The position numbers and the translations under genes are program-made. Under the pieces are notes generated by a model, which was given only the letters and a program-made list of their open reading frames with translations, was not told the DNA's origin and did no database searches. From NCBI GenBank assembly GCA_025054935.1, contig JANWZD010000001.1, forward strand, positions 201,008 through 265,007: a DNA stretch of 64,000 nt, in the 5' to 3' direction. This document shows, one piece after another, positions 13,478 through 44,696 of this stretch; positions within the stretch are counted from its first letter, which is position 1, and the number at the start of each line of letters is the position of its first letter. The DNA is from Dehalococcoidia bacterium. Its GTDB lineage: Bacteria; Chloroflexota; Dehalococcoidia; SpSt-223.

Positions 13478-15169
13478 TCATCGCCGGCGAATGCTCGCCC
13501 CCGCGCCCTGATGCCCGCGCTCCATTCGCGGGTCGCGTTGGTTCGGGTCGATTTTGACGGCGATGAAAACGGGGCCGTCGATCGTGCCGAGCCCTGCTAA
13601 AACCCGGCGATACTCCTCTGCGCTGGCAACATTGAAGGCACGGCATCCCATCGCCGCGGCAATTGCCGCAAAGTCGGGGTTGTCGAAGTCGCTCAGGAAG
13701 GTCGGCTCGCCGCGCGTCTGGAAGAGAACGCGCTCCGCGCCGTAGCCGCCGTCGTCTTCGCAGATCACCAGAAGCGGAATGCGCTGTCGGGCGGCGCTTT
13801 CGAGTTCTGCCACTGTCATCATCAGGCCGCCGTCGCCGATGAAGAGGACAGTCAGCCGGTCGGGCCGGCCGACTGCCGCGCCGATCGCCTCCGGAAGCGC
13901 TGTGCCGATGGCGCCCAGTCGCCACGGGAAGAGCAGGTCATCGGGATGGGGCGTCCGCAGGTGCGCGGCGGGCAGGCCCATGAAGTGACCGATGTCGACG
14001 ACGAGCAACCGATTAGCCGGTAGCAGCTCGTCGGCGATCTGCACCACGAGCCGCCGGTCGAGGTAGCCGGGCGATCCCGCGAAGGAGCCTTCGCGCCAGG
14101 GGTCGATTGCCGCGATCCGCAGCGCCAATTCTTCGCTGCGCCAGCCTCGGCGCGCGCCCGGCCCGAGCGCCTCGGCCAGAGCGTGCGCCGTTGCGCGGGC
14201 GTCGGCGATGATGGCGCGGTCGACCCGCGTTATCGCGCCGATAGCAGCCGGGTCGGTGTCGATCTGGACAAGCGTTGCCTCCGGAAAGAGACGTCCAGCG
14301 TCGAGCGTGTAGTGCGTGAGCGCTGCCCCAAACGCGAGCACGAGGTCGGACTCGTTGAGAATGGCGCGAGCGTCTTCGGGAGCAAACCCGCCGGCCAGCC
14401 CCACGTTAAAGGGATGCCCGTCGAACCAGCCGCGGGCGAATAACGTCGTCGAAAGCACCGCTCCGATCCGGTCGGCGAGGGCGATCAAGGCGTCGCGAGC
14501 GCCGGCGCGGATGGCGCCGCGGCCGGCAAGGATGACGGGACGCTCGCTGCGTTCCGCCAGCTGGGCCACCTCGGCAACGAGCCGAGGGTCGGGGAGCGGA
14601 GCTTGCCGCTCCGGCAGCACTCGCTCCGCCGGCTCATAGCGCCAGCCCGCAGGCAGCGGCTGCTCAGCGACGTCATAGCTGAGCTGGAGCACAATCGGCC
14701 CCTGCCCGAGACGGGCGTGGCGGAAGGCGAGCTGAATCTCTTCGGCGGCGGTGGCGGGGGTTGAGATCGGCTGGAGCGCCCCGGCGGTTGCGAGGATGAT
14801 CGGGGGCTGGTCGATGTCCATGTTCCCGAGTCGGCTGCCGGCGGGCTTATCCGCGGCGATGACGACGAGAGGCGTCCGCGACAGCCGCGCCGCGGTAAGG
14901 GCGGTGGCCGCATTTGTCAGCCCGGGGCCTTGGGCGACCACGGCGACCCCCACTCGCCCCGTCGCGCGCGCGTAGCCGTCGGCCATGTGAACCGCCCCTT
15001 GCTCATGCCGCGCCGCAATGTATCGCCGGCGGTGGCGTGTCACCCAGTCGAGCATCATCCGGTCGATGACAGCTCCGACGACGCCGAAGACCACCTCGAC
15101 GCCTTCCGCCGCAAGCGCATCTGTCACGCCGTGGATGACCTGAAACGAGGCCTGCTCATCGCCGCTCAT
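13478..15169 (-). CDS. Thiamine pyrophosphate-dependent enzyme (acetolactate synthase/benzoylformate decarboxylase family)
   Basis: Three-domain TPP-enzyme layout, with an N-terminal Pyr domain (HEQGAVHMADGYARATGRVGV) and a C-terminal TPP-binding motif (LFIGDGGLMMTVAELESA). Confidence 0.8.
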   Translation of the reverse strand: MSGDEQASFQVIHGVTDALAAEGVEVVFGVVGAVIDRMMLDWVTRHRRRYIAARHEQGAVHMADGYARATGRVGVAVVAQGPGLTNAATALTAARLSRTPLVVIAADKPAGSRLGNMDIDQPPIILATAGALQPISTPATAAEEIQLAFRHARLGQGPIVLQLSYDVAEQPLPAGWRYEPAERVLPERQAPLPDPRLVAEVAQLAERSERPVILAGRGAIRAGARDALIALADRIGAVLSTTLFARGWFDGHPFNVGLAGGFAPEDARAILNESDLVLAFGAALTHYTLDAGRLFPEATLVQIDTDPAAIGAITRVDRAIIADARATAHALAEALGPGARRGWRSEELALRIAAIDPWREGSFAGSPGYLDRRLVVQIADELLPANRLLVVDIGHFMGLPAAHLRTPHPDDLLFPWRLGAIGTALPEAIGAAVGRPDRLTVLFIGDGGLMMTVAELESAARQRIPLLVICEDDGGYGAERVLFQTRGEPTFLSDFDNPDFAAIAAAMGCRAFNVASAEEYRRVLAGLGTIDGPVFIAVKIDPNQRDPRMERGHQGAGASIRRR

Positions 15170-15322
15170 CCGTCCGCCCTCCGAACGTTGCTCGGTCCAG
15201 CATACACGGTGCTGCCGAGGCAGGGTTCACGCACCTGGTTGCGTTCTGCACCTAACCAAGCGCAGAATTTGCCCGTCTCGCGGTGCGCGACGGCGGGCCG
15301 GAGCGAGGCGAGTGAGGGGAAC

Positions 15323-17278
15323 GTGCAGGTCAAGACGGCGCTCGCAGCAAGCATGCTCATGCTGGCGGGAAGCGCCCTTTTTTTGCTTGGGGTCGTCGCC
15401 GCGGTCGTGATCGCGGAAGGGCGAGGCGCGCCGCTCGAAGAGCGGTTCTTCGAACTCCCGCTTCTGCCGACTGCCTCCCCAACCGCGACGGCGACGCAAG
15501 TCCGGCCCTCGCCGACGGCAACAGCGCCGCCTCCCCCGGCTTCCCAGCTCTATTTCCGCTGTAACGACGGCACGCTGCTCATCGGCACAAGCCGGGTCGG
15601 CGCCTGTGAAGGACGCGGCGGAATTGCCCAAGTGTCCGATGTGCCATTTTCCGCCGAGAGCCCGGTGCCTGCCTTGATCCCGCCGCTGCTGGCTACTCCT
15701 CCCGCTGAGACCGGCGCTCCCAGCACTCCCACGCCGACCCCGACGACCTTCACCTCTTTCGCTCCCGCGTTGCCGAATGCTCCCCGGGAAGCTGCGCAGC
15801 CGTCTCCCACCCCAACCCCAGAAGCGACCCCAGAGCCGACCGCAACGGCCACGCCGACCCCTCGCGCAGAGCCGACGCCGACCCCAACCCCGCTCCCTGC
15901 CCCAACGGTCACTGTCGTTCCAGCCGACCAGCAGCCTCGGCTGCCGCCGGGCGCGCCAGCCAGCCGCTCCACCCTCGCCGGGCTGTGGCACGCGCCGGTC
16001 GAAGATGATGTCTTTCTCGGACGACTGGAGGAGAGCGGCGCAGGATGGGTGCGCATCTTTCTGAGGTGGGAGCGTATCGAGCCGGTTGAAACGACGCCGC
16101 CGTCGTACGACTGGGCAGCGAGCGACCAGGCGCTTCGATTCGTGCGCGAGCGCGGGCTTCAGCCTCTCGTCACCATCGTTGATCCGCCGTCATGGGCAGC
16201 ATTTCCGACCTGTGGTCCCTTCCGGACTGAGGCGGCGCGGGACCGCTGGCTGCGGTTCGTCCGCGCGGCGGTCGAACGCTACTCGCGGCTTCCCTACGCC
16301 GTTCGCTATTGGGCGCTCTACGACGAGCCGGATTTCCGCATCCAGAACCCGAACGACAAGTTCGGGGGAGGCGCGGGCGGCGGCTGCTGGGGCAGCCATC
16401 CAGCCGACTACGGCGCGATGCTGCGGGCAACCTACCCTGTCATCAAGGCCGCGGACCCTGCGGCGCTCGTTGTGCTCGGACCGCTCGCTGCTGATGGCTG
16501 CGAGCCGACCTACAACTGCGAGTTCTTGCGTGAGGTCCTCGACCCGGCGAAGGGAAACGCGGGCGCAAGCTTCGATGTGGCGGCGTTCAATTACTTTCCC
16601 GTGTACCGCCGCGGCTGGGAGCGGTTTGGTGCCTCATTGCTTGGGAAAGCGGAAGGCATCCGGCGCACGATGGCCGAGTTCGGGGTCTCGAAACCGGTGC
16701 TGGTCGCCAAAACAGGCATTCTGCTCGACGGCAGCGAGGCGGCAAGGGCGCAAGCGAATTACGTCGCTCAGGCGCTTACGCTCGGCTTGGCCGACGCGGG
16801 CCGCCCTGACGGCCTCGGGACGCAGGCGGTCATCTGGTTCTCGCTTCGGGATAGCGATGACCCCAACGACCGGTGGGGGCTGGTTGATGCCTCGGGAAAC
16901 CCGAAAGAGTCGTTCTTGGTCTTCCAGGCATGGGTCAAGGAGATGACGGGGCTGCGCTTCGCCCGGAATGAGAGCGAGCCGACCTACGGCAGCGGCCCGG
17001 CGACGCCCTGCGACAGCGGCCCCTATCGATGCGACGCGCTTCAGAAATATGTCTTCGCCGCCGGAGACCGGGAGAAATGGGTGCTCTGGGTTGACGCCGG
17101 TCCCCATCGCCAGCCCGACCGGTTCACCACCACCGCAACGCGGGTTGTCGAGGTGCCTGCTTCCCGGGTGATCGCGCTGCGCAATCGCACCGGCGACCCT
17201 CTTCCCTATGAAGTCGTCCAAGATCAGGCGCGCATTGTGGTGGGAGAGAGCCCGCTCTATCTGACGCTCCGCCGCTAG
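15323..17278 (+). CDS. Membrane-anchored glycoside hydrolase-like protein (GH5/GH39-type TIM-barrel) with an N-terminal Cys-containing DUF3761-like module and a Pro/Thr-rich linker
   Basis: GTG 15323 with a GAGGGG SD. N-terminal TM anchor (ALAASMLMLAGSALFLLGVVAAVVIA). YFRCNDGTLLIGTSRVGACEGRGG module. A roughly 90 aa PT-rich linker. The catalytic domain carries WALYDEPDF and GH-like motifs. Upstream ORF-track residues (from 14930) are antisense to the TPP gene. Confidence 0.7.
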   Translation: MQVKTALAASMLMLAGSALFLLGVVAAVVIAEGRGAPLEERFFELPLLPTASPTATATQVRPSPTATAPPPPASQLYFRCNDGTLLIGTSRVGACEGRGGIAQVSDVPFSAESPVPALIPPLLATPPAETGAPSTPTPTPTTFTSFAPALPNAPREAAQPSPTPTPEATPEPTATATPTPRAEPTPTPTPLPAPTVTVVPADQQPRLPPGAPASRSTLAGLWHAPVEDDVFLGRLEESGAGWVRIFLRWERIEPVETTPPSYDWAASDQALRFVRERGLQPLVTIVDPPSWAAFPTCGPFRTEAARDRWLRFVRAAVERYSRLPYAVRYWALYDEPDFRIQNPNDKFGGGAGGGCWGSHPADYGAMLRATYPVIKAADPAALVVLGPLAADGCEPTYNCEFLREVLDPAKGNAGASFDVAAFNYFPVYRRGWERFGASLLGKAEGIRRTMAEFGVSKPVLVAKTGILLDGSEAARAQANYVAQALTLGLADAGRPDGLGTQAVIWFSLRDSDDPNDRWGLVDASGNPKESFLVFQAWVKEMTGLRFARNESEPTYGSGPATPCDSGPYRCDALQKYVFAAGDREKWVLWVDAGPHRQPDRFTTTATRVVEVPASRVIALRNRTGDPLPYEVVQDQARIVVGESPLYLTLRR

Positions 17279-17453
17279 GACGGGTGCGAGGCAGCCGCGG
17301 CAGCTGGGCCCGCAGGCCTAGCGCGGCTCCCCGAGTCCGATCATGGGCTCGGCACGGGAAAGTCGGCGCAACCGGGACACAACTCCTTGTTTCGACCCTT
17401 GCGGGTCAGGTATTTCACAACCACGCCAAGCGTCGTCTCATCGGGAGTGTTGG

Positions 17454-17993
17454 ATGCCTGTGGTCGAAGCGAAGCCGACGGTCGACGCCGCCTCGCCGAT
17501 CGTCCGGCTGACGGCTGACCTCCGCCGCAGCACAATTGCAGCCTGCGAAGATGAACGCGGCCGCCCGTACGTTCTCGTCACTGCGGAACCGCTGCGCTTC
17601 GACCGTGAGCATCTGCTCGCTGAGGCAGACAGCAACTTTGGCTTCTGTCTTGTCATTCGCCTCACGGGGCACGCGCCGGCGATTGGGATCCTCCGCCAAA
17701 CCGAGCGCGGCTTTCGCGAATATTGGCGCACCCTTGCGCCAAGCGCGCGGGCACTGCTCCGGCGGCTTCAGACTGCGGTCGAAGAGGCCGAGACGGTCCC
17801 GGTCTTCTGGCGAACGGCAGATGACACCGTCGTTGAGTTTCACCTCGGCGGCTATAACCGCCAGCACCGTGTCTGGTACAGTCGGCTCGACGCCGTGGAC
17901 CCGGAGGCGCCGCTCTTTCTCCTCTGTCCGCCGACCCCCGACGAGCCGGAGCGCCGCCCGCTCCGCTACGGCAGTCCAGCGCCGCGCCGGTAG
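17454..17993 (+). CDS. Hypothetical protein (about 180 aa)
   Basis: ATG 17454 preceded by a GGAGTG SD. Protein-like composition. I recognise no family. The upstream part of the ORF-track frame is Ser/Arg-rich junk. Confidence 0.45.
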   Translation: MPVVEAKPTVDAASPIVRLTADLRRSTIAACEDERGRPYVLVTAEPLRFDREHLLAEADSNFGFCLVIRLTGHAPAIGILRQTERGFREYWRTLAPSARALLRRLQTAVEEAETVPVFWRTADDTVVEFHLGGYNRQHRVWYSRLDAVDPEAPLFLLCPPTPDEPERRPLRYGSPAPRR

Positions 17994-18001
17994 GCGGGCC
18001 C

Positions 18002-18436
18002 TCAGGCCCATACCCAGGCGAGCGTAAAGCCGAGAAGCGCGCCGGCGACGACCTGGATGGGGGTGTGGCCGATGAGCTCGAAGAGCCGCTTCTCAGAGAA
18101 TCGATGCTCCACAAAGTACTCGTCGAGCATCCGGTTCAAAATGCCGGCCTGAATGCCCACAGCACGCCGGACGCCCGCGGCGTCATACATCACGATCGCC
18201 GCGAAGACGAGACTGAGCGCGAACAGCGGCGTATGCACGCCGTCCAGCTTGCCGATAACCGTGGCGAGGGACATGACGACTGCGGAATGAGCGCTCGGCA
18301 TGCCGCCGGGCCGGGTGAACGTCCGGGGGCTGAGGCGATGCTCGCGGATGAGGATCCAGAGCACCTTAATGCTTTGACTGAGTAGCCACGCGAAGAAAGG
18401 AATGGTCAGATATTTATTGGCAAGCAGCGCTTCCAT
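18002..18436 (-). CDS. Divergent PAP2 family membrane protein (YuiD-like, acid phosphatase/haloperoxidase-related)
   Basis: MEALLANKYLTIPFFAWLLSQSIKVLW...GGMPSAHSAVVMSLATVIG...MYDAAGVRRAVG matches the PF02681 'divergent PAP2' pattern (PSxHSA). Start ATG 18436. Confidence 0.75.
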   Translation of the reverse strand: MEALLANKYLTIPFFAWLLSQSIKVLWILIREHRLSPRTFTRPGGMPSAHSAVVMSLATVIGKLDGVHTPLFALSLVFAAIVMYDAAGVRRAVGIQAGILNRMLDEYFVEHRFSEKRLFELIGHTPIQVVAGALLGFTLAWVWA

Positions 18437-18512: not shown

Positions 18513-18728
18513 TCAGCGCGGCGGAAGGTCGGTCTCGTCTTGGAGTTGGACGAGGCGAAGCTCCGCCGTTTCGATAATGGTGGCACAGGTCTTGACGAGG
18601 CGCATCCCCTGTTCGTAAAGCCCCATCGCCTCTTCCAGCTCGAGCCCCCCTTCTTCGAGCCGTTGGACGATCGCCTGCAGCTGGGCAAAGGCAGCCTCGA
18701 AGGTTAGGGGGGCAACGTCATTCGTCAT
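18513..18728 (-). CDS. xseB: Exodeoxyribonuclease VII small subunit
   Basis: 71 aa; FEAAFAQLQAIVQRLEEGGLELEEAMGLYEQGMRLVKTC is the canonical XseB sequence. Overlaps the xseA stop by 11 nt. Confidence 0.85.
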   Translation of the reverse strand: MTNDVAPLTFEAAFAQLQAIVQRLEEGGLELEEAMGLYEQGMRLVKTCATIIETAELRLVQLQDETDLPPR

Positions 18729-19929
18729 GGTACCCCTCGCTCTTCAACTCGATGGCGTTCGCGGTCGCGCGGACTGTCCCATCCACGAACAGAATGCGCA
18801 GCGTATCGCCCGCCTCTATCGCTGTTGCGCGCCGAACGACGGCGTGCCGGGTCGCATTTTCAACAACGGCGTAGCCTCGCGCCAGCGTTTGCGCCGGGCT
18901 GAGCGTTTCGAGGCGTTGGCGGATGCCGGCGAGATGGGCGGCGTGCAGCTGCAGCATCGCCCGCGCGCTGTCGCCGAGACGGCGGCCGAGATCGTCGACC
19001 TGCTGGCGCAGCCGGTTAAGGTCTGGCGCTGCCCGGTCAAGGCGGTGGCGGAGGAAGCGGAGCTCGGCTGCAGCCTCGGCGAGCCGGTTTGTCATCTCGC
19101 CGACCAGCGTGGCGCGACAAGACTCGAGCTGCGCCTGCAGCTCGGTGATGTCCGGAACGCACAGCATCGCCGCAGCAGAGGGGGTCGGTGCGCGGAGGTC
19201 GGCGACGTAGTCAGCGATCGTGAAGTCGGTCTCGTGGCCGACCGCCGAGACGACAGGGATACGGCTGGAAAAGATCGCCCGGGCGACACGTTCATCGTTG
19301 AAGCACCAGAGGTCTTCCGCTGACCCGCCGCCGCGCGCGACGATGATCAGGTCGATATCGTCGCGCGCGTTGACCCGCGCGATCGCCTCGGCGATCTGGG
19401 CGGGCGCCGCATCTCCTTGGACCTGACAGGGTGCAAGCACCAGCTCGACCAAAGGGTAGCGCTGGGCGATGATGGTGTAGATATCGTGCAGGACTGCCCC
19501 GCTCGGCGAGGTGACGAGCGCAATTCGGCGGGGGAAAGCAGGGAGCGGACGCTTGCGGGAGGGGTCGAACAGCCCTTCTGCTTCCAGCCTCGCTTTGAGA
19601 AGCTCGAACTGAAGCTGCAGGGCGCCGAGACCGGCAGGCTCGATGAGGTCGGCGACAATCTGCAGCTCGCCGCGCGCCTCATAAACCGACAGGCGGCCAT
19701 GGACGACGACGTGGTCTCCATCGGCGATCGAGTGCGCGGACTTCCCTCGGCGGAAGAAGACACACTTAATCGCCGCGTTCGTGTCCTTCAGCGTGAAGTA
19801 CAGGTGGCCAGCCGTCGAACGGTACGAGTTCGAGACCTCTCCCTCCACGAAAACGTCGGCGAGAGCGCTCTCTCGCTCAACAACCTCCCGGAGATAGCCG
19901 ACCAGCTCGGTCACCGAGAGAACCGTCAT
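18718..19929 (-). CDS. xseA: Exodeoxyribonuclease VII large subunit
   Basis: N-terminal OB fold (LSVTELVGYLREVVE...VFVEGEVSN...HLYFTLKD). Catalytic core with conserved motifs. 403 aa. Confidence 0.9.
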   Translation of the reverse strand: MTVLSVTELVGYLREVVERESALADVFVEGEVSNSYRSTAGHLYFTLKDTNAAIKCVFFRRGKSAHSIADGDHVVVHGRLSVYEARGELQIVADLIEPAGLGALQLQFELLKARLEAEGLFDPSRKRPLPAFPRRIALVTSPSGAVLHDIYTIIAQRYPLVELVLAPCQVQGDAAPAQIAEAIARVNARDDIDLIIVARGGGSAEDLWCFNDERVARAIFSSRIPVVSAVGHETDFTIADYVADLRAPTPSAAAMLCVPDITELQAQLESCRATLVGEMTNRLAEAAAELRFLRHRLDRAAPDLNRLRQQVDDLGRRLGDSARAMLQLHAAHLAGIRQRLETLSPAQTLARGYAVVENATRHAVVRRATAIEAGDTLRILFVDGTVRATANAIELKSEGYHDE

Positions 19930-20378
19930 GGCTGCGGCGTCCCAATCCGGAAGAGCGGCTGGCCGTAGCCGACCCCTTCGCCATCGGCGACGAGCACCTC
20001 AAGGATCGTCCCGGCGCATTCCGCGATCACGTCATGCACAACCTGCACTGCTTCGATAACGGCAAGGCGCTGGCCGGCCTCCACCGTTTGGCCGACGTCG
20101 ACGAGGGGCGGACCGTCAACTGTCGCGCTGCGTCGGAACCAGCCGACGACCGGAGCCGTGACGATGGTGCTGTCCTCCTCTGCCTGCAGCGCAAGCGGGG
20201 CAGCCTCATCTCCACTCGGTGCCGGCGCAGGCGCCGCCATGCTCCGCCGGATGCGCAGCCGCACCCCTCGGCGTTCGAACTCCAGCTCTTCGACATCGGA
20301 GTGGGCAAGAAGCCGGAGAATGTCGGTTGCCTCTCCGGTGAGGTAGGCGATGGGGTCGGGTGGGTCCTGGTCGGCCAC
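19926..20378 (-). CDS. Biotin carboxyl carrier protein (AccB)-like protein lacking the canonical biotinyl-lysine
   Basis: BCCP N-domain (ATDILRLLAHSDVEELEFERRGVRLRIRR) and biotinyl-domain fold (GQTVEAGQRLAVIEAVQVVHDVIAECAGTILEVLV). Where E. coli BCCP has EAMKM, this protein reads EAVQV, with codon CAG (Gln) at the Lys position. Confidence 0.75.
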   Translation of the reverse strand: MADQDPPDPIAYLTGEATDILRLLAHSDVEELEFERRGVRLRIRRSMAAPAPAPSGDEAAPLALQAEEDSTIVTAPVVGWFRRSATVDGPPLVDVGQTVEAGQRLAVIEAVQVVHDVIAECAGTILEVLVADGEGVGYGQPLFRIGTPQP

Positions 20379-20383
20379 GGCGC

Positions 20384-20947
20384 TTAGCTCGTCACCCGCT
20401 CGATATAGCTTCCATCCCGCGTATCGATGCGGAGAATATCGCCGACGTTGATGAAAAACGGCACATTGACGACGACGCCCGTCTCCAGCGTCGCCGGTTT
20501 GGTGCTCCCGCTGGCAGTGTCGCCTTTGAAGCCGGGCGGCGTGTCGACCACCGCGAGGTCAACCGTGAACGGCAGCTCCAAGCTGATCGGGATCTCGTCC
20601 TGGAGGAGCAGGTCGAGCGTCATCCCCTCTTTCATGAACGGCGCGGCATCGGCCACCTGCTCGGCGTTCATCTCAAACTGCTCGAACGTCTCGCGGTCCA
20701 TGAAGTGGAAAGTGTCGCCGTCGCGGTAGAGGAATTCGACCGGCCGGCGGTCGAGGCGAACGCGATTGAACTTTTCTCCCGCTTGGAAAGTCCGTTCGAT
20801 GGTGTGGCCGGCTTTCACATCCTTCAGCTTGAGCCGGATCTGGGCGCTCCCCCGCCCCATTTTGATGTGCTGGTACTCCACGACGCTGTAGAGCTTGCCG
20901 TCGAGCTCGATGACAATGCCGCGGCGGAGATCCCCGACGCCGATCAT
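20384..20947 (-). CDS. efp: Elongation factor P
   Basis: 187 aa, canonical EF-P three-domain sequence. The loop residue equivalent to E. coli K34 is Arg (KMGRGSA). Confidence 0.9.
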   Translation of the reverse strand: MIGVGDLRRGIVIELDGKLYSVVEYQHIKMGRGSAQIRLKLKDVKAGHTIERTFQAGEKFNRVRLDRRPVEFLYRDGDTFHFMDRETFEQFEMNAEQVADAAPFMKEGMTLDLLLQDEIPISLELPFTVDLAVVDTPPGFKGDTASGSTKPATLETGVVVNVPFFINVGDILRIDTRDGSYIERVTS

Positions 20948-22026
20948 CCTCTCCTCCTGATCGCTGGCTCTTTGGGCGCTTTGCTCAGCACACGCACGCC
21001 CTCCTCTTCCAGCACAACAAGATCTTCGATCCGCACCCCGAACTTGCCGGGGAGGTAAATGCCGGGCTCGACCGAAAAGACCATCCCAGGCTGCAGCACG
21101 TCTTCACTCTCGCGGCGGACGAGGGGTCCCTCATGGGTCTGCAGTCCGATCCCATGGCCGAGGCTGTGCCCGAACTGGTCGCCGTAGCCCGCTTCGGCGA
21201 TCAGATCGCGCGCGATCTTGTCTGCCTCGCCCCCTTTCATCCCCGGCCGAATCCCAGCCTCGGCCGCCTGCTGCGCTCGCAGGACGATGTCATAGATCTC
21301 AAGGTAGTAGGGGTCCGGCTCTCCGAGGCAGAACGTTCGGGTCAGGTCGCTGCGATAGCCATCGACGATGCAGCCGAGATCGAGGACAATCGGCTCGCCC
21401 GCCTCGATCCGCTTCCTTGTCGGCTGGGCATGGGGAAGCGCGCCCCGCGCGCCGCTTCCCACGATCACGGAGAAGGCGAGGCCTTCTGCGCCCGCCTCGC
21501 GCATCCGCTTCTCGAGCTCCCACGCTACCTCGAGTTCGGTGACCCCCGGACGAAGCCAAGCGGCAACCGCCTCGACAGCGGCGTCAGCGATGGCGACGGC
21601 GCGCTCGATCGCATTCAATTCCTCGCGGTCCTTGATCATCCGCACCGGCTCCACTATCTCTTTGGTCGGCACAAGCTCGATCCCCGCCTCCGCGGCAGCG
21701 GCCTGCAACTGCTCCCATTGGAGGTAGGTCAGTGCGCCGGCCTCAAACCCCAGCTGCGTCAGCCCAAAATCGCTTTTGAGCGCCGGCAGTTCTTTGAGGA
21801 GGCCGTTCTCCAGCTTGCGGACGACGAAATGAGGCGCTTCCTCGGCCGCTTGTTCGACATAGCGAAAGTCGGTGAGGAGCACGGCCTCGGTCGGCGTGAT
21901 CAGGAGATGGCCGGCAGAGCCGGTGAACCCGCTCAGATAGCGCCGGTTCTCAGCACTGCTGATGAGGATGGCTGGCAGGGAGCGCGCTGCCAAGATCGCG
22001 CGGACACGCTCTACTCGATCGCTCAT
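20944..22026 (-). CDS. pepP: Xaa-Pro aminopeptidase / M24 family metallopeptidase
   Basis: From MSDRVERVRAILAARSLPAILISS... to HGIGLQTHEGP...VFSVEPGIY, i.e. Creatinase_N plus the M24 'pita-bread' metal ligands. ATG 22026; the 4 nt overlap with efp suggests an operon. The N-terminal part of ORF-track frame 20944..22269 is a spurious extension. Confidence 0.85.
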   Translation of the reverse strand: MSDRVERVRAILAARSLPAILISSAENRRYLSGFTGSAGHLLITPTEAVLLTDFRYVEQAAEEAPHFVVRKLENGLLKELPALKSDFGLTQLGFEAGALTYLQWEQLQAAAAEAGIELVPTKEIVEPVRMIKDREELNAIERAVAIADAAVEAVAAWLRPGVTELEVAWELEKRMREAGAEGLAFSVIVGSGARGALPHAQPTRKRIEAGEPIVLDLGCIVDGYRSDLTRTFCLGEPDPYYLEIYDIVLRAQQAAEAGIRPGMKGGEADKIARDLIAEAGYGDQFGHSLGHGIGLQTHEGPLVRRESEDVLQPGMVFSVEPGIYLPGKFGVRIEDLVVLEEEGVRVLSKAPKEPAIRRRG

Positions 22027-22049: not shown

Positions 22050-24299
22050 CTACCGGCGCGCGCCGGCCGGCGTCCGGTCGCCACGGGAAGAGCGGGCCGT
22101 GCGGGACGTTCGGCGCGAGGTCGTGCTGCCGGCGCCCTGCTTCGCGGCCGAGCCGGTTGGGCTCGTCTGCGCGGCGGCAGCAGGCGCTGGCTCGCGGATG
22201 ACGGGGTTTTCCGTCAAACATCGCGCGCCGCTCGCCGTCTGCACCTGGAAGCCGCCGCAGTTGGGGCAAGGCTCAGGAAGAGGGCGGTCCCACACTGTGA
22301 AAGTGCAGGCGGGATAGCGGTCGCAGCCGTAGAAGGTACGACCTTTCTTGCTCGACCGGACGACAAGCTCTCCCTCGGCGCACGCCGGACAGCGGACGCC
22401 GACCTTCTCCAGAAGCGGCTTTGCGTTCCGGCAGGTCGGAAAGCCGCTGCAGGCGATGAAGCGCCCGAAGCGCCCCCGTTTGATCACGAGGGGACGCCCG
22501 CATTTGTCACAGTCTTCGCCGTACGGCTCATCTTCCACCTTCACCGTCGGCATCGCCTCGGCGGCGCGCTCAACCTCCCGGTGGAAGGGGAGGTAGAAGT
22601 CGCGCAGCACCGGAACCCATTCGCGCTCTCCATTGGCGATGTCGTCCAACTGCTCCTCGAGCTGCGCCGTGAAGCCGACGTCGACGATATTGGGGAAGTA
22701 GGTCACGAGCAGGTCGTTGACGGTGACCCCGAGCTCTGTGGGCACCAGCCGGCGGTCAACGCGCTTGACATATCCCCGTTCGATAATCGTCGAGATGATG
22801 GGGGCATAGGTGCTGGGCCGTCCGATCCCCTGCTCCTCTAGCGCCTTGACGAGCGAGGCTTCGGTATAGCGCGGGGGCGGCTGCGTGAAGTGCTGCTCCG
22901 GAACGAGCGCGACGAGGTCGAGCTGATCGCCGACTTGGAGCGCCGGCAGCGGGCGTTTTCCCTCGTCGTCGACTTCCCCCTCCTCATCTGTGCTCTCGCG
23001 ATACAGTTCGAGGAAGCCGGGGAACTTGATGACCGACCCGCTTGCGCGGAGCAGATAGTCTGTTCCGCTCGGCGTGTCGCTGGCGCGGATCTCCACCGTC
23101 GTCGTGTCGAGGGTGGCGGCTTCCATCTGGCTGGCGACGAAGCGCTTCCAAATGAGTTCGTAGAGGCGATACTGCTCCGGGGTGAGCGCCGCTTTGATGC
23201 GCTCCGGCTCGCGGAACGTACTCGTCGGGCGGATCGCTTCGTGCGCCTCTTGCGCGTTGCGGGCTTTCTTTGTGAAAACTCGCGGGGCGGCAGGCACAAA
23301 GTCGCCGCCGAACTTCTGCGCGATGTACCGGCGCGCCTCCTGCTGAGCCGACTCGGCGACGTGTGTCGAGTCCGTGCGCATATAGGTGATGAGCCCGACG
23401 CTTTCTCCCTCGTCAGGCAGGTAAATGCCCTCGTACAGCTGCTGGGCGACGAGCATCGTCCGTTTGGCGGTGAAGCGCAGCTTGCGCGCTGCTTCCTGCT
23501 GGAGGGTGCTTGTCGTAAAGGGAGGCGCGGGCTGCCGCTGCACCTCCCGTCGGCGCACCTCGGCGACAGTGAATGTCGCCGGCCGGAGGTCAGCAACAAG
23601 CGCCGAGGCCCGTTCCTCGTTCGGGATCGTGAGCTTTTCGCGCTGCCCCCACTGCCCGATCAGGCTCGCCCGAAATTGATCGCGCTTGCTCCGAGACTGC
23701 TGCTTTGTCAGGTCGGCGTCGATCGTCCAATACTCGGTCGGCACAAACGCGGCGATCTCCCGCTCTCGGTCGACAATCAGCCGCACTGCCACGGATTGGA
23801 CACGGCCGGCGGAGAGCCGCCCTTTCACTTTCCGCCACAGGAGCGGGCTGAGCTCATAGCCGACTAAGCGATCGAGGATCCGGCGCGCCTGCTGGGCGTT
23901 CACCAGTTCCATGTCGATCGTGCGCGGGTGACGGAAGGCTTCAGTCACCGCCTCCTTTGTGATCTCATGGAAGACCACGCGCCGTACCTTGGCCGGGTCG
24001 ACGCCGGTCGCCTCCGCGAGGTGCCACGAGATTGCCTCTCCTTCTCGATCGGGGTCGGTGGCGAGCCAGACCGACGGCGCCTCTTTGACCGCCTCGCGCA
24101 GTTCTTTGATCAGCTCCTTTTTCTCGCGCGGAACGAGATATTTCGGAGCGAAATCGTGCTCGACATCCACGCCGAGCTGGCTCTTCGGCAGGTCGCGGAC
24201 GTGTCCGAGTGACGCTCGAACCGAGTAGCGAGCCCCGAGAAACCGGCTCAGGGTTTTGGCTTTCGTGGGCGACTCGACAATGACGAGGTCTTTTGCCAT
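22050..24299 (-). CDS. topA: DNA topoisomerase I with C-terminal zinc-ribbon repeats
   Basis: TOPRIM N-terminus (LVIVESPTKAKT...GHVRDLP). Catalytic Tyr region. Three to four C4 zinc ribbons (CDKCGRPL..C; CPACAEGELV; CPNCGG). Basic tail. Confidence 0.9.
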   Translation of the reverse strand: MAKDLVIVESPTKAKTLSRFLGARYSVRASLGHVRDLPKSQLGVDVEHDFAPKYLVPREKKELIKELREAVKEAPSVWLATDPDREGEAISWHLAEATGVDPAKVRRVVFHEITKEAVTEAFRHPRTIDMELVNAQQARRILDRLVGYELSPLLWRKVKGRLSAGRVQSVAVRLIVDREREIAAFVPTEYWTIDADLTKQQSRSKRDQFRASLIGQWGQREKLTIPNEERASALVADLRPATFTVAEVRRREVQRQPAPPFTTSTLQQEAARKLRFTAKRTMLVAQQLYEGIYLPDEGESVGLITYMRTDSTHVAESAQQEARRYIAQKFGGDFVPAAPRVFTKKARNAQEAHEAIRPTSTFREPERIKAALTPEQYRLYELIWKRFVASQMEAATLDTTTVEIRASDTPSGTDYLLRASGSVIKFPGFLELYRESTDEEGEVDDEGKRPLPALQVGDQLDLVALVPEQHFTQPPPRYTEASLVKALEEQGIGRPSTYAPIISTIIERGYVKRVDRRLVPTELGVTVNDLLVTYFPNIVDVGFTAQLEEQLDDIANGEREWVPVLRDFYLPFHREVERAAEAMPTVKVEDEPYGEDCDKCGRPLVIKRGRFGRFIACSGFPTCRNAKPLLEKVGVRCPACAEGELVVRSSKKGRTFYGCDRYPACTFTVWDRPLPEPCPNCGGFQVQTASGARCLTENPVIREPAPAAAAQTSPTGSAAKQGAGSTTSRRTSRTARSSRGDRTPAGARR

Positions 24300-37734: not shown

Positions 37735-40700
37735 CTAGTTCTCAATCACGATGCGGACGACTTTTCTGCCTCCTGTATCGACGACATAGAACCTGCCGTC
37801 GTCCGCCGCGACAATCTCAACCGGCAGCGTGAACAGCCCGGGCGCGCCGCCAACCTGCTGGACCCCTTCACGAACGTCGTAGCGCACGAGGCGGCCTCGG
37901 TCCGGGTCGGTGACCACCGGTCGGGAAGCAGCGTCGAGCACGAGGTGAGGTCCGTTCAGCGGGACAGACCAGTTGATCGGCCATTCCGCTTGATAGCGGC
38001 CGCCGGGGTCGAACCATTGGAGACGCTTGTTGCCGGTGTCGAGAACGAGGAGGTCGCCGGTCGGAAGCAGGGCAGCGTCGGTCGGTTCCAGCATCTCGCC
38101 CGGACCGGCGCCCTTTCTCCCGCCGTAGATGGTCAGCAGCTGGCCGTCGGAAGCGAACTTGAGCACGCGGTTTTGCCCCGTGTCGGAGATATAGAGATTG
38201 TCCGCCTCATCGATCGATAACCCGCGCGGCTTGTAGAAGTCGGACCGCGCTAACGGCAGCCGCCCCACAAACCGGCCGTCATCAAGGCGGTATTCGTGGA
38301 TCCCGGCTGTTGTCGCATCAAGGATGAACACTCGCCCCGATCGGGTGATGGCGATCCCGGTCGGCTCTTGGAGGCCGCCTGCTGTCGGCTCTGGACCCGC
38401 ATACGCGCGGATAAACTGCCCCTGGGGATCGAAGACGAGCACTCGCCGCGCTCCTCCATCAAGCACGTGCAGAGCGCCGGTAGGGTCAAGAGCAGCAGCG
38501 CGCGGCTCCTCAAGCCGTCCCTCAGGGGAAAGTCCGTAGGTCATCTCGACTCGAAGCGAGAGCGGCGGGCCGCTTGCGAAGCGCACGACGCCGCTCGGGA
38601 CGCGGACGGCGGCCTCTCGGGGAGCCGCAGGCACGGTCGGGCTCGGGGGAAGATCGCTCCCTTGGGGAGGCAGCAGCACCGCTGACGGGATCAGCTCGCG
38701 TCGTCGCCCTGGCGGCGTCCAGTAGAGGTAGATGCGCGAATAGGGATCGCGGTCGACGAACTTCAGCTGGAGATCGTGCAGCCCTGCCTCGAGCGGCACA
38801 TCTACCTCGTGGAGTTCGCTGCCGCGACGATTGTCGATAATCAGCCGGCCATTGAGAAAGAGTTGGGAAGTGCTGATCTGCTCTGTCCCAAAGCGGTAGA
38901 CACCTGGCTGGTCGATCCGGAGCGTGCCGCGCCACTCCACGCTGTAGGGGCGAGGAAGGGGCAGAATGTGGAAGTACATGCCGATCTGCGGATCGATCCG
39001 GAGAAGGGCGGGCTCTCCTGCCCACTCGGCGTTGGGATAATACGCGCCGAGCAGCCCTGTCGCCGCAACGGGAGGGAGATAGAAGAGGTTGGAGGGGATC
39101 GGGCTGAGCGTGCCGCCCGGCGGCTCCCAGGCCAATCGGACTGGTTGGCCTGGGCGGTCGGCACGAGCTCGGAGCAGGAGAGCGTGGTTGCCGGCTGCGA
39201 GGGTCAGCCGCGCTGCCTGGCCTCCGGTGAGCACGCGCGCGCCGTTGAGGAACAGCTCGGCACTGCTCGGTCCTTCAAGGAGCAGCCGGTAGCTGCCGTG
39301 CCGGGGAACGTGGAGCGTGCTCCGCCACTCCGCAAGCACCGGAACCGCGAGGCCGAGCGTGGCCGGGTCGATGTTGATCTCGGTCTCGCGGCGGCTGAGA
39401 TCGGGCCGCTCGCGTTCAGTTCCGTGCGCGAAGTAGCGCGCCTCAACGCCTTGGATGGCGACGATATCGGCCGGCGCGAGCTGAACAGCGTAGACGAGCG
39501 GAGGTCCGCCGAAGGGCGGACGCAGCTCCTCGACTTGGGCGCTGGGATAATAGAGCCGAAGCTGGCTGAACGCCGCCTGCTCGCTCGGGTCGAGGAAGAA
39601 GAAGGTCCGCGGAGCAACGGCGCGCACCGGTACGTCTGTTGCGGCGTTGAACAGGGCGCCTTCGGGCGCCTTCGGGGCGAGGAACCGGATTGTAGGCGGT
39701 CGGCCGGAGAAGAACTGGCTGAGGTAGACTGCATCGTTCGGAGAGAGCTCGCGAAGCCGCAGGGCAACGAGCGTTTCGGCCGCGGAATGGGCCGCAAAGG
39801 CGGCGAAGTCGTTTGCCCAGGCGACGAAGTAGCGATGATGGTTGACGACGGCGACGAAGAGGAGGGCGCTGCCGAGAGCGATGGTGCCCCCCGCTCGCCA
39901 AGCTCGCGACCATGCCGACGGGCCATGCCACCGCGCGGGGAGACGCGGAAACGTTCCAACCAGCAGCGCTCCGAGCGAGAGCGGGGTGCGGCTGCTGCGC
40001 GCGGCGGCCGCCGGGTTGCCGTACGTCCCCCAGGGGCTGCGCACCCAGCGGTCCCAGAGCGCGCCGAGCGGCAGCGCCGCAAAGATGAGCGTCGGCGGCA
40101 GCGCGGTCGATGCGCGCAGCGACTGCGGAGCTTCAAAGTTGAGGGAGAGGATCCCTCCAAGCAGCATCGTTCCCCACCAGATGATGAGGGTCGGCCCAGT
40201 CGGGCGGCGAAGCAGTCCCAACGTCAGCCCCACGCCGAGAACGAAGAGCGGCGCCAGAAGCGGGTCGAGCATCGGCCGGCCGGGAAGGTTATGGCGGCCA
40301 TTGCGGTCCCCCGCCACGTTAAACATCAGCAGGTGCTTCTCGATGTTGTCGAGCAGCGGGCCCCAGTGACCGGCTCGCTCCACTTCGGGCATCACGCTTG
40401 CGACCCCAAGCCTACGGTTGAACTCCTCGGGGAAGCGGACTGCAAACCATGCCAACGGCCCGGCCGCAATCAGCGCCGCGAGGGCGAGGAGGAGTGCGCC
40501 TTGGCTGATCGATGGCCAGAGCGATCGCCGCCAGAGCGCAGCCGCGAGGAGCAGAACGGCGAGGGTTACCGGGAAGATCCGTGACGGGAAGTAGAACTGG
40601 AGGTCGAACCCGACAAGAAGGCCGGCGATAACGAAGTCGCGCGGCCGGCGGTCTTGCAGTCCCCGCACGAGGAAAAACAGGACGAGCGTCTCGAGGGTAA

Positions 40701-41550
40701 TGCTGAAGATTGCGGTGCTGGTCGGAAAGCGGCTTAGGGTGACGTGCCAGCTGGAAACGGCGAGAAACCACGCCGCAATGAGCGCGATCCGCGGCGAGCC
40801 GAAGAGCCGGCGGGTGAGGAGGTAGATCGCGGGGATCCCCACGGTTCCCGCAATCGCTGTGGTCACCCGCAAGGCAAGAGGAGTCTCTCCGAAGACGAGC
40901 ATCGCGAGGGCGGCAAGGTAGATATTCGCCGCCGGGTTTTGGTTTTCGACGTAAAAAATCGGCCGGTATGTCGGCGAGGCGAGGATCTGCTGGGCGCCAA
41001 GGCCGACGACCGCCTCGTCGTACCACACTCCGAAGGGGAGCGTCGCTAGTTCTGCGGTACGGAACCAGAGCCCGACTGCGGTCGCGAGGGCGAGGATGGC
41101 CAGTTCAGCTCGGCCGATTGGCGGGCTGACCGGTGTCCGCGTGCCGGCCGGCAGCAGGAAGGCTGCGCCGAGTGTCATCGCAACAGCGGCGAGGTAGAGG
41201 AGCCAGGCGAGGTTTGGATTGCGGTCGCTTGAAAACAGCCAGAGGGAGCCTCCAAGGAAGAGGAAGGCAGCCGCGCCGGCAAAAGCTGACGGAAGCGCGG
41301 CCGTCAGCCGCGGCCAACGGCCTGTGCTCTCCCAGCCGTCAGGACCGGTGGCGGGCAGCGCGTACTGCGCCAGCGCGATTGCAATAAGGAACGCCGCCCC
41401 AGCAGCGATGAGGTCCGGCGGCTGGCTCAGGTAGCGAGCATTGGCGGCGACGGCGAGGACAATGGCGACGATCCCAGCGAGGAGGCGGCGCGGCTGCGAC
41501 GGGAAGAGGAGCCGGGTCGCCGAGCGGGAGGAGGGCGCCGCTGGTGCCAT
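37735..41550 (-). CDS. Large GT-C/GT39-like polytopic membrane glycosyltransferase homologue fused to tandem PA14 domains and a C-terminal NHL-repeat beta-propeller (1271 aa)
   Basis: N-terminal about 550 aa with more than 10 TM helices and a PMT/ArnT-like loop (GVWYDEAVVG). Middle: two PA14 signatures (GLLGAYYPNAEWAGEP...YRFGTEQISTSQLFLNGRLIID...LYW and an earlier degenerate copy). C-terminus: NHL repeats (YISDTGQNRVLKF, LVLDTGNKRLQWF, FYVVDTGGRKVVRI). Confidence 0.8.
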   Translation of the reverse strand: MAPAAPSSRSATRLLFPSQPRRLLAGIVAIVLAVAANARYLSQPPDLIAAGAAFLIAIALAQYALPATGPDGWESTGRWPRLTAALPSAFAGAAAFLFLGGSLWLFSSDRNPNLAWLLYLAAVAMTLGAAFLLPAGTRTPVSPPIGRAELAILALATAVGLWFRTAELATLPFGVWYDEAVVGLGAQQILASPTYRPIFYVENQNPAANIYLAALAMLVFGETPLALRVTTAIAGTVGIPAIYLLTRRLFGSPRIALIAAWFLAVSSWHVTLSRFPTSTAIFSITLETLVLFFLVRGLQDRRPRDFVIAGLLVGFDLQFYFPSRIFPVTLAVLLLAAALWRRSLWPSISQGALLLALAALIAAGPLAWFAVRFPEEFNRRLGVASVMPEVERAGHWGPLLDNIEKHLLMFNVAGDRNGRHNLPGRPMLDPLLAPLFVLGVGLTLGLLRRPTGPTLIIWWGTMLLGGILSLNFEAPQSLRASTALPPTLIFAALPLGALWDRWVRSPWGTYGNPAAAARSSRTPLSLGALLVGTFPRLPARWHGPSAWSRAWRAGGTIALGSALLFVAVVNHHRYFVAWANDFAAFAAHSAAETLVALRLRELSPNDAVYLSQFFSGRPPTIRFLAPKAPEGALFNAATDVPVRAVAPRTFFFLDPSEQAAFSQLRLYYPSAQVEELRPPFGGPPLVYAVQLAPADIVAIQGVEARYFAHGTERERPDLSRRETEINIDPATLGLAVPVLAEWRSTLHVPRHGSYRLLLEGPSSAELFLNGARVLTGGQAARLTLAAGNHALLLRARADRPGQPVRLAWEPPGGTLSPIPSNLFYLPPVAATGLLGAYYPNAEWAGEPALLRIDPQIGMYFHILPLPRPYSVEWRGTLRIDQPGVYRFGTEQISTSQLFLNGRLIIDNRRGSELHEVDVPLEAGLHDLQLKFVDRDPYSRIYLYWTPPGRRRELIPSAVLLPPQGSDLPPSPTVPAAPREAAVRVPSGVVRFASGPPLSLRVEMTYGLSPEGRLEEPRAAALDPTGALHVLDGGARRVLVFDPQGQFIRAYAGPEPTAGGLQEPTGIAITRSGRVFILDATTAGIHEYRLDDGRFVGRLPLARSDFYKPRGLSIDEADNLYISDTGQNRVLKFASDGQLLTIYGGRKGAGPGEMLEPTDAALLPTGDLLVLDTGNKRLQWFDPGGRYQAEWPINWSVPLNGPHLVLDAASRPVVTDPDRGRLVRYDVREGVQQVGGAPGLFTLPVEIVAADDGRFYVVDTGGRKVVRIVIEN

Positions 41551-41555
41551 CGCGG

Positions 41556-44500
41556 TTAGGGAAGCGGGTCAAATCGTTGGACGCGAGCGTTATTGCTGTC
41601 AACGACAAAGAGCGCGCCGTCCGGCCCGACGGCGACGCCAATGGGGAGATTGAAGCTCCCGGGCTCGGCGCCGAAGCGGCCCACGACATTGAGAAGCTGC
41701 CCTTCCGGCGAGAACCGGAGCAGCCGGTGGTTCTCGGGGTCGGAGACGATGACATTGCCGCTCGGGTCGACCGCGAGATACGGCTTGTTCAGAATGCCGG
41801 TGCTCTCCCAGCCGCGGATCGGGGTCGCCCCCAGGGGGCGCAGGCTCGCGTCGAACCGCTGGATCCGTCGGTTCCAAGTGTCGGCGACGAAGATCGTGCC
41901 ATCGGGAGCAACGGCAATCCCGACCGGTTCTTGGAACTGCCCGAGCATGGCGCCGGCGCCGCCGAAGGCGCCGAGAAACTGCCCGTCCGGCCGGAAGCGC
42001 TGTATCCGCTTGTTGCCGGTGTCGGTGACGAGCAGCGACCCGTCATCGAGGAAGGCGATCGCGCGCGGCCCGTAGAACCGGCCGGGATTTCCCGTCACCT
42101 GCCCGACCGACTCGCCGAACTCGCCAAACTTCCGCAGAAAGCGGAGATCGGCGGTGAACTGCTGGAGGCGATGGTTCCAGGTATCAGCGACCCAAACGGT
42201 GCCGTCAGGCGCGATGGCGATCCCCCACGGCTCGGTGAATTCACCATCAAGCGTTCCCCGGCGGCCGACCTGAGCGACCACGCGGCCGGAGGGATCGAAC
42301 TTCTGCACCCGATGGTTACCCGTATCGACGACGTAGATGAAGCCGTCTCCATCGACGGCGATGCCGCGGGGCTCGAGCAGTTGTCCTGCGCCGCTGCCGC
42401 GAGCGCCGAAGGCTGCGCTCGGCTGAAGAGGGGTAAGCGCGAGAGCGTATTCATCCGGTTGCGCCGGCCGCGCCGGGCCGGCGGTCAGCGGCTCGCCGGC
42501 GAGAAGGGAGCTCTTGACGAAGAAATAGCCGTCTTCCGAGCCGAGCGGCTTGCCCAGGTCGCGGTTGAAAAAGTACTGCCACAGCCGTTCTAGCCCGGTG
42601 GGACTGAGCGACGCCGCGACGGCATCGCTGAACCCAAACGCGCTGTTCGGGCGTCCCGGCTGAGCGGCCAAGGGGGAGCCCATCGCGGCCACCCACTCGA
42701 TAGCGCTCTTGTAATCCTCGGGGAACCACCAGCGATGACGGTAGCGCTGCCCGGGGGTGTAGTCGCTCAAATACGGGCGCATCCGCTCCACATTGTTGGC
42801 GTGGATAAGCACCACCTGCCCGGCGGGCGGAGCAGCAGCACCGCTGTAGGAGGGGTAGTCGACGTTCGGGTAGTGGCGGAGATACCACGCCCAGGGCCAA
42901 GTAAAGCCGCTGGTGCTGTCGACGGAAATGCGCAGCTCTTTTCCGCCTGTAGCCCGGAGAGAGAGCCGTTCGATTTCGCGGTACAGCCGAGGGATATCCG
43001 GGGAGGTTTGGGTGTAGATCAGCATCTCGGTGGCGATATCGCCGTGTTTGTAGGTGACAGTCCACGCAGCGCGCATCGTGAGGACGAGCAGGATCAGGAC
43101 GATCGCGCCGCTTGCGGCGCGGACGATCCCCGAGCCCCCGAACGGTGCCCCAACCTGAACAGCGGCCCCGACAAGGAGCAGCGCGATCCCGATCAGGGCG
43201 AGCGCTTGGCCGTTCCATCCCGGTGCGAGGTCGGCGGCGGCTTGAATCAGGCCGGCGGCCCCTGCCGCAAGAACGACCGCTGCCGCGATGAAGAGCGCAA
43301 CCACCGCGGCGGCCCGCCACGCCACGTCCGAGTTCCACCGCACCCCCTCAAGCCACCAGCCTGCTGAGCGACCCGCAAGCACGATCAGCGGCAGCGCGAC
43401 GTGGACAAGCAGCCACGGCATCTTCTCGCCTGCCCAGCTGTACGCAACGAGCGAGCCGACAAACCAGTAGAAGAGAAACGCAACGAATGGTGTCAGCCTC
43501 TCCCGGTGGCGAACGAGGGAGGCAATCCCTGCGCCGGCAAGGGCAAGCGGAAGGAATTCATAGAGCGGCAGCAGCAGGAGGTAGTAGTACCACGGCTGGT
43601 TGCCGCGCTGCACCCCATGCTGGTCGAGCCAGTAGGCGAGACTGCCCCAGACCCCAGACCCGATCCCCGGCAGATTGGTAAAGAAGGTGCTGTACAGGAG
43701 CACGAACACTGTCCAGAAGAGCGCCGCATATCCCGGCCAGACGGTTCGGTTCCACCACAAGCCGACGGCGGTCGAGATGACAAAACAGATGCCAGCGATC
43801 ACGAACTGCGAGAAGATCGCCCGCGTGGTCACCCAGGGCCCAAAAGCGATGACAGTCGGGTCTGTCGAGACGAGGGGTGTCAGCTTCGCAAAAGCGGCGA
43901 GCAGGGGCAGAGTGAGCGTGCCGAGCAGGATCAGGACGCCGAAGATCCTGTTGTCCCGCACCTCCTCCAAGCGAGGAAGGCGCCCTTTCCCAGCGAGATC
44001 CCACAGCCAATAGGCGGTGAAAAAGCTGCCGAACACCGCAACGGTAATGTAGTGGGTCTCCTTTGCCGAAAAGCCGAGCGCCATCATCAGCGTCCCGAGA
44101 TAGAGCCAGCGAACTTCCTTGCGCTCGATGTACCGCCAGGCCGCGAGTGCCAAGAGGAGGGTGAAGACCGCCATCAGGATGTCGTTGCGGGAAAAGCGGC
44201 TGTAGTACAGCATCGTCGGCGAGAAGGCGAGCAGCACCGCCGTGACGAGCGCGCCGCCGCGGCCGAGGAGGTCGCGCATGAAGAAGGGGAGGAGAACGAG
44301 GACGGTCCCAAAGGTCGCGTAGAGGAGGCGAGCCGTGACGTCGTTGTCGCCAAACAGAAAGTAGATCAGGGCGTTTACGTGAAACTGAAAGGGGCCGTGC
44401 ATCATCGGGTCGTGCTGGTAGCCCCGCCCGGCGTAGAGATACCAGCTATAGAGCACGTGCAAGCTCTCATCGTGATGCATCGCGCGCGTTCCGAGATCCC

Positions 44501-44660: not shown

Positions 44661-44696
44661 GGGTGCGGCCAGCTCGCAGAAGAAGTCGAAGCGGTG

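Follow-up and report, generated by a model that had tools for sequence, protein, structure and literature searches.

Carrier subunits without a biotinylation motif have been described in plants, where the BADC proteins are homologues of the biotin carboxyl carrier protein (BCCP) which are not biotinylated and bind biotin carboxylase (BC) and BCCP non-catalytically; BADC-type subunits are described as unique to the plant htACCase (PMC11926652). The E. coli BCCP, AccB, has an N-terminal domain with an alpha/beta/beta motif in its first ~30 residues, which oligomerizes and has biotin-independent regulatory roles (PMC11160672). Chloroflexus has a fused BC-BCCP alpha-subunit (PMC11077971); with the biotinyl domain on the carboxylase itself, a separate carrier is catalytically dispensable in principle. 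In the literature, which was covered incompletely, we found no description of a bacterial BCCP lacking the biotinyl-lysine and no explanation of the linkage between accB and efp, the gene for elongation factor P (EF-P). Here we describe such a lysine-less protein, termed BCCP', which is encoded between efp and the exonuclease VII genes xseA and xseB on a 64,000-nucleotide stretch of DNA from a Dehalococcoidia bacterium (contig JANWZD010000001.1, positions 201,008 to 265,007; hereafter the window). We tentatively propose, with a probability of roughly 0.45, that BCCP' is a positional orthologue of accB that has become a non-catalytic subunit, analogous to plant BADC.

BCCP' shares with AccB/BCCP (TIGR00531; 1BDO, 4HR7) a three-part architecture and the position of accB downstream of efp. 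It differs in having EAVQV for EAMKM and no lysine at all, in changes at Y92, T90, P97, C116 and E126 (E. coli numbering), and in the absence of accC downstream, where most ordinary BCCPs have one. Plant BADC is the closest functional model, being likewise a BCCP fold without the biotinylation motif; BADCs, however, are eukaryotic, plastid-targeted paralogues that coexist with BCCP1/2, whereas BCCP' is a positional accB orthologue known from sequence. Common descent of the two is unlikely, given that BADCs are 25-30% identical to BCCP. The fused BC-BCCP alpha-subunits of Chloroflexus and of actinobacterial acyl-CoA carboxylases have biotinyl domains that keep EAMKM and are biotinylated, unlike BCCP'; we found no such fusion in the window, nor in those related loci that were examined.

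An AccB-type fold without the biotinyl-lysine

The gene and its parts are as follows.

19926..20378, minus strand: BCCP', the lysine-less AccB-type BCCP gene (150 aa, GTG start, NCBI MCS6800506.1)
20244..20354, minus strand: N-terminal alpha/beta/beta domain, aa 9-45 (helix 9-25, strands 31-36 and 39-44 in the AlphaFold2 model)
20172..20243, minus strand: Pro/Ala-rich flexible linker, aa 46-69 (predicted local distance difference test score, pLDDT, <50 for aa 49-66)
19941..20171, minus strand: biotinyl-type beta-sandwich domain, aa 70-146 (pLDDT >93)
20106..20129, minus strand: thumb segment, aa 84-91 (E. coli AccB 94-101), with its length kept and the canonical Pro (P97) replaced
20043-20045, minus strand: Gln112 codon CAG (ctg on the plus strand), at the beta-hairpin tip, in the position of the E. 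coli biotinyl-lysine K122

Residues 108-117 of BCCP' read IEAVQVVHDV where EAMKM is expected. An earlier note on this DNA, made from the sequence alone, had reported Gln in place of the biotinylation Lys through a CAG codon one change away from AAG, and direct reading of the open reading frame (ORF) and of the codon bears this out. A single substitution of this kind might stem from a sequencing or assembly error, or from a strain-specific point mutation in a normal accB. A search of 5.8 billion proteins returned an identical protein, MCS6800506.1 from a Dehalococcoidia metagenome-assembled genome (MAG), and nine close homologues (53-70% identity), all nine of which lack Lys at the site (eight Q, one E); hits more distant than these carry the canonical EAMK. 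In the four genomes for which DNA was available, the site codon is CAG, CAA, GAA and CAA. Since the nine close homologues, all without Lys, derive from separate assemblies and samples, and Gln occurs as CAG as well as CAA, with GAA in one relative, an error or a strain-specific AAG to CAG mutation is excluded by these data and we consider it extremely improbable. The whole protein is moreover devoid of lysine, and the Met residues flanking the site have also been replaced (EAVQV). The alignment of orthologues that the earlier note had suggested thus shows Q or E throughout, in a gene under purifying selection, and the AAG (Lys) codon that it had considered as grounds against its own claim is absent from the nine.

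Modification at another position was also considered. Biotinylation or lipoylation of a different lysine is ruled out for the window's clade, whose proteins hold 0-2 lysines each, with none among the 150 residues of BCCP' itself. A special reaction at Gln112, for instance of the transglutaminase type, is likewise ruled out, as G, R, Q, E, N, H, D, T and S all occur at this position across the wider family; this variability indicates a site released from constraint, and Gln is not special in itself. Since the biotinyl-lysine and, with it, every lysine of BCCP' has been lost in this clade, the protein is predicted to be incapable of carrying biotin or CO2, as the earlier note had claimed for biotin, and shuttling between BC and carboxyltransferase (CT) would be chemically impossible.

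The remainder of the protein is structurally intact, which agrees with the initial description. An AlphaFold2 model was built from a 129-sequence alignment (mean pLDDT 81.8), and places Q112 at the hairpin tip between strands 104-110 and 113-118. Foldseek superposed the C-terminal domain on E. coli BCCP 1BDO with a root-mean-square deviation of 0.7 A (TM 0.91, 35% identity, 75/80 residues), and the same model also superposes on Arabidopsis BCCP1. A profile of lysine-less sequences aligned over its full length with E. coli AccB (4HR7 chain B), including the N-domain and the thumb (E = 1.3e-32); in this alignment, which starts at about E. coli residue 4, aa 9-45 of BCCP' are the counterpart of the AccB N-terminal domain that serves in oligomerization and BC anchoring. 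The Tyr next to the thumb (E. coli Y92) has been replaced, as has the thumb Pro.

Domain searches gave a Pfam Biotin_lipoyl match (E = 8e-12), and the best NCBIfam match was TIGR00531, the BCCP equivalog, at 80.9 bits, under the cutoff of 115.2. Membership in the Lipoyl domain/GcvH group is not indicated (GCV_H 20.8 bits against a cutoff of 22.2, and no lysine). Among the features by which AccB/BCCP is recognized, the N-domain with its Pro/Ala linker and the beta-sandwich with an acetyl-CoA carboxylase (ACC)-specific thumb are present according to the model and alignment, and the biotinyl-lysine, a score above the equivalog cutoff and an operonic accC, which is typical rather than strictly defining, are absent. 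BCCP' is thus assigned by its predicted architecture to the AccB type, as more than a generic biotinyl domain; having neither the biotinyl-lysine nor a score above the curated cutoff, it is not to be classed among functional BCCPs.

Family, gene order and selection

The clade of the window, with Q or E at the site, is small. When 1.84 billion representatives were searched exhaustively with a profile, two at 50% identity were found for this clade, followed by a steep drop in score, and a scan with narrow patterns found the window's exact motifs in 3 GTDB species representatives, at least one of which, KatS3mg060, may be a hot-spring MAG. The wider family is considerably larger. In the set collected by that stage, 34 of 169 sequences had no Lys at the aligned site, and on a neighbor-joining tree most of them fell into a single grouping together with the window's clade, the remaining losses being few and isolated. 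The profile of this grouping matched 1834 proteins at E <= 1e-10; among the matches listed, Lys was missing in 96 of 102 new proteins (G 56, R 35, N 3, T 1, Q 1), and the dominant site motif of the wider family is AVEAM[G/R]MLNR[IV]Q. Wherever an organism is named, the family member comes from a MAG of Chloroflexota, Chloroflexi or Dehalococcoidia, and most of these named proteins are annotated as the BCCP of ACC. The lysine loss, first seen in a single genome, therefore belongs to a large family whose named members are all from Chloroflexota. No obvious plant-like lysine-less protein was seen among the best 150 representatives.

The genes that surround BCCP' in the window form a conserved block.

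22050..24299, minus strand: topA (topoisomerase I), an upstream block member in many relatives
20944..22026, minus strand: pepP-like Xaa-Pro aminopeptidase (M24), 360 aa counted from the Met that matches relatives, overlapping the efp start
20384..20947, minus strand: efp (elongation factor P), which ends 5 nt upstream of BCCP'
18718..19929, minus strand: xseA (exonuclease VII large subunit), whose ATG overlaps the BCCP' stop codon
18513..18728, minus strand: xseB (exonuclease VII small subunit)
18002..18436, minus strand: DUF212/divergent PAP2 family gene, the last conserved block member (144 aa if started at the Met shared with relatives)

The xseA start and the BCCP' stop share 4 nt (ATGA within CCATGA, 19926-19929). 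A consensus scan of the block gave no minus-strand promoter, terminator or operator signals above chance, which fits a single long operon from topA to the DUF212 gene. The operon was originally described as efp-xseAB without accC, and this description stands: efp lies immediately upstream, xseA overlaps, and no BC was found in the major ORFs scanned (~45).

This arrangement was compared across ~11 independent lysine-less loci, comprising the window, L001, L003, L005/6 and L010 (Q/E), L011 (Q, of a different subfamily), L013 (G), L015 (R), L017/18 with the P0188 contig (G/R) and L076 (N). The usual order is (topA-)pepP-efp-BCCP'-xseA-xseB-DUF212. Wherever an examined lysine-less locus included upstream sequence (~11 loci), efp is directly upstream of BCCP', and xseA-xseB follow in all loci but L013. 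A biotin carboxylase gene stands beside BCCP' in none of the ~11. The control was a generic metagenome sample of mostly canonical, stand-alone BCCPs bearing the lysine (K-bearing), in which BC is directly downstream in 43 of the 50 loci with room for it and efp directly upstream in 8 of 60. One relative that retains the lysine, P0054 (VEAMKVMNEI), occupies the same pepP-efp-accB-xseA-xseB slot, also without accC. BCCP' is thus better regarded as accB's positional orthologue, in place of a paralogue, and the tie to the efp-accB linkage that the earlier note had offered as a possibility is strengthened. The single K-bearing example of P0054 suggests an order of events in which accB first parted from accC and subsequently lost its lysine.

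The constancy of these neighbors could also mean that BCCP' has been exapted to a function that involves neither biotin nor carboxylases, for example that of an adaptor for EF-P/PepP, in proline-related translation and proteolysis, or for exonuclease VII. Such a role would account for efp standing upstream across very divergent lysine-less variants, for xseA directly downstream in all but one locus, for a stop/start overlap with xseA that suggests translational coupling, and for the lack of any ACC gene nearby. However, efp is also adjacent to ordinary K-bearing BCCPs, both in the control sample and in P0054, and lysine-less and K-bearing loci share one EF-P loop sequence, HxKxGRGSA; one lysine-less locus, L013, has no xseA. 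The order pepP-efp...accB-accC...nusB-folD-xseA-xseB occurs in Bacillus, and the arrangement pepP-efp...accB-accC...xseA-xseB is an ancient one in Firmicutes/Terrabacteria. The block thus seems to be a Terrabacteria inheritance, and the linkage of efp and accB appears to be older than the loss of the lysine. In B. subtilis, knock-down or overexpression of accB left the modification state of EF-P unchanged (PMC5885033). Exaptation is thus considered unlikely as a whole, and its more specific form, in which a carrier-fold adaptor works with EF-P/PepP on proline-rich nascent chains or with exonuclease VII, quite improbable.

BCCP' could alternatively be a functionless relic, a decaying accB whose reading frame is kept for translational coupling or operon spacing of xseA. 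The loss of the catalytic residue, the free drift of the site and the 4-nt overlap with xseA in the window are in keeping with this. Nei-Gojobori estimates of the ratio of nonsynonymous to synonymous substitution rates (omega) were calculated for BCCP' and control genes from the same loci in four genomes. For BCCP', omega was approximately 0.20-0.31 when the full gene was taken, 0.08-0.22 in the C-domain and 0.07-0.45 in the N-domain, with the linker near neutral (about 0.4-1.3); the controls gave 0.04-0.11 (efp), 0.10-0.13 (pepP) and 0.10-0.27 (xseB). Both folded domains of BCCP' are thus, by these approximate values, under purifying selection despite the missing catalytic residue, at a level like that of xseB and pepP. 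Full length, fold and N-domain are also kept across hundreds of divergent sequences, and by gene coordinates BCCP' and xseA overlap by 8 nt at one extreme and are 66 nt apart at the other, so that coupling is not a conserved feature. A relic is accordingly very improbable.

Residues were compared between 138 lysine-less and 124 K-bearing sequences (E. coli numbering). In the lysine-less set, K122 is variable, Y92 is mostly R, C116 is G and E126 is R, and T90 and the thumb P97 are also changed; P86, V88, G89, F91, G106, G112, E119, A120, G133, V146, G149 and L152 are kept, and the N-domain is well conserved. Apparent gains in conservation are to be discounted since one subfamily dominates the lysine-less sample. 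The pattern fits a putative loss of biotin-related constraints with retention of fold, contacts and N-domain.

The same residues bear on a further explanation, that BCCP' is an autoregulator whose N-domain represses transcription as does E. coli AccB 1-68, or an unbiotinylatable pseudo-substrate that titrates BirA. In its favor are the strong conservation of the N-domain, the retention of E119-A120-M121 and, in most of the family, of E147, which presumably flank the site that BirA recognizes, and the E. coli precedents cited in PMC11160672. On the other hand, in the window's clade E147 is replaced by Gly (G137) and M121 by Val (V111), so that a role as BirA decoy is less likely here; BCCP' has neither birA nor bio genes in its vicinity, and no operator or promoter signal above chance was found. 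We therefore hold an autoregulatory role to be rather unlikely.

Proposed role of BCCP'

Of the roles that the earlier note had entertained, a decoy or regulatory paralogue or a non-enzymatic partner, the non-enzymatic or regulatory part is retained as the likeliest function, and the paralogue part is set aside given the slot shared with P0054. According to our proposal, BCCP' represents accB of a Chloroflexota lineage in which this gene lies between efp and xseA without accC; the biotinyl-lysine has been lost, and the AccB N-domain, linker and thumb-bearing biotinyl fold have been retained. The N-domain and the surface of the carrier domain could then co-assemble with, scaffold or compete at a complex of BC and genuine BCCP whose genes would lie in another part of the genome. 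One possible partner would be a BC-BCCP alpha-subunit fusion like that of Chloroflexus. Co-transcription with efp, pepP and xseAB would reflect inherited synteny, with no functional link.

Several points weigh against a BADC-like subunit. No BC, CT, BirA or further biotinyl domain was found when ~45 major ORFs of the 64 kb window were scanned, and no BC, CT, BirA or K-bearing biotinyl domain within 10 kb of the related loci. The thumb and hairpin residues are unlike those of a canonical BCCP, so that binding to BC or CT might have been lost too. E. coli E147, which we take to be a determinant of BirA recognition, is Gly in the window's Q clade. Synonymous divergence is saturated (dS >1), which makes the omega values given above approximate, although the contrast between folded domains and linker is still clear. 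Finally, any resemblance of BCCP' to BADC would probably be convergent.

Neighboring genes, other carrier variants and meaning of the family

The EF-P encoded in the window (20384-20947, minus strand) has an Arg at the tip of its modification loop (HIKMGRGSAQ), and the same loop type recurs in efp of L001-L019, beside K-bearing and lysine-less BCCPs alike. Convergent with the DUF212 gene is an ORF at 17343-17993 (plus strand) without a Pfam match; L001, L003 and L005 have genes of 173-179 aa, likewise without a Pfam match, in the same position. This looks like a conserved hypothetical gene of the lineage, a call made uncertain by an overlapping ORF on the opposite strand. A 782-aa ORF at 14930-17278 (plus strand) contains a long Pro/Thr/Ala-rich low-complexity region, and L001 has a gene of ~680 aa without a Pfam match at a comparable position. 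Farther away, three consecutive large genes (1271, 1034 and 620 aa; 37735-46559, minus strand) encode PMT_2 glycosyltransferase domains, with NHL repeats in two of the three and a PA14 domain in one; L017 and the P0188 contig also have a gene of similar PMT_2/NHL type close to the efp block.

The searches also returned carrier proteins of other kinds. P0092 and P0148 are BCCP-like, with AM[S/N]IPKD at the site, that is, S or N at the canonical lysine position and a lysine three residues later; from this motif they may have a register-shifted acceptor site or be further dead carriers. In P0022 (546 aa), P0023 (344 aa) and P0047 (353 aa), an N-terminus that by eye looks TIR-like (FISYRRxDS...) is fused to two to four biotinyl/BCCP-type domains, some with the lysine and others without it, which is an odd architecture. 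P0051, P0099 and P0113 (613-643 aa) were considered as BC-BCCP fusions and rejected, since by eye they look like fusions of a carboxyltransferase (PycB/OadA-like) with a carrier; the carrier part appears to be full-length and AccB-type, including the N-terminal domain. P0030 (281 aa, L021:6215-7060) contains an AccB-like N-domain with a degenerate, lysine-less, biotinyl-like module, followed by a second N-domain with a canonical IEAMKMF module. Its gene directly follows pxpB/pxpC/pxpA-type genes (CT_C_D, CT_A_B, LamB_YcsF), and as Rosetta-stone evidence this tandem is weakly relevant, the pxpBCA-type cluster being a different system.

Automatic annotation routinely labels BCCP' and its relatives "acetyl-CoA carboxylase biotin carboxyl carrier protein". 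Metabolic reconstructions of Chloroflexota/Dehalococcoidia MAGs that count such a dead carrier as a functional part of ACC or another carboxylase are consequently wrong on this point. Plant BADCs control the committed step of fatty-acid synthesis, and dead carriers in bacteria suggest that non-biotinylatable subunits are a more general solution than the plant-only BADC; the bacterial family provides a simple prokaryotic system in which to study them. The strict adjacency to efp, which has outlived catalysis, makes the long-noticed and unexplained efp-accB linkage testable. If that linkage is functional, the lysine-less family should be the easiest place to isolate the non-ACC role of AccB, and a role as an adaptor for its operon partners, if true, would explain why the efp-accB linkage is so widely conserved in bacteria.

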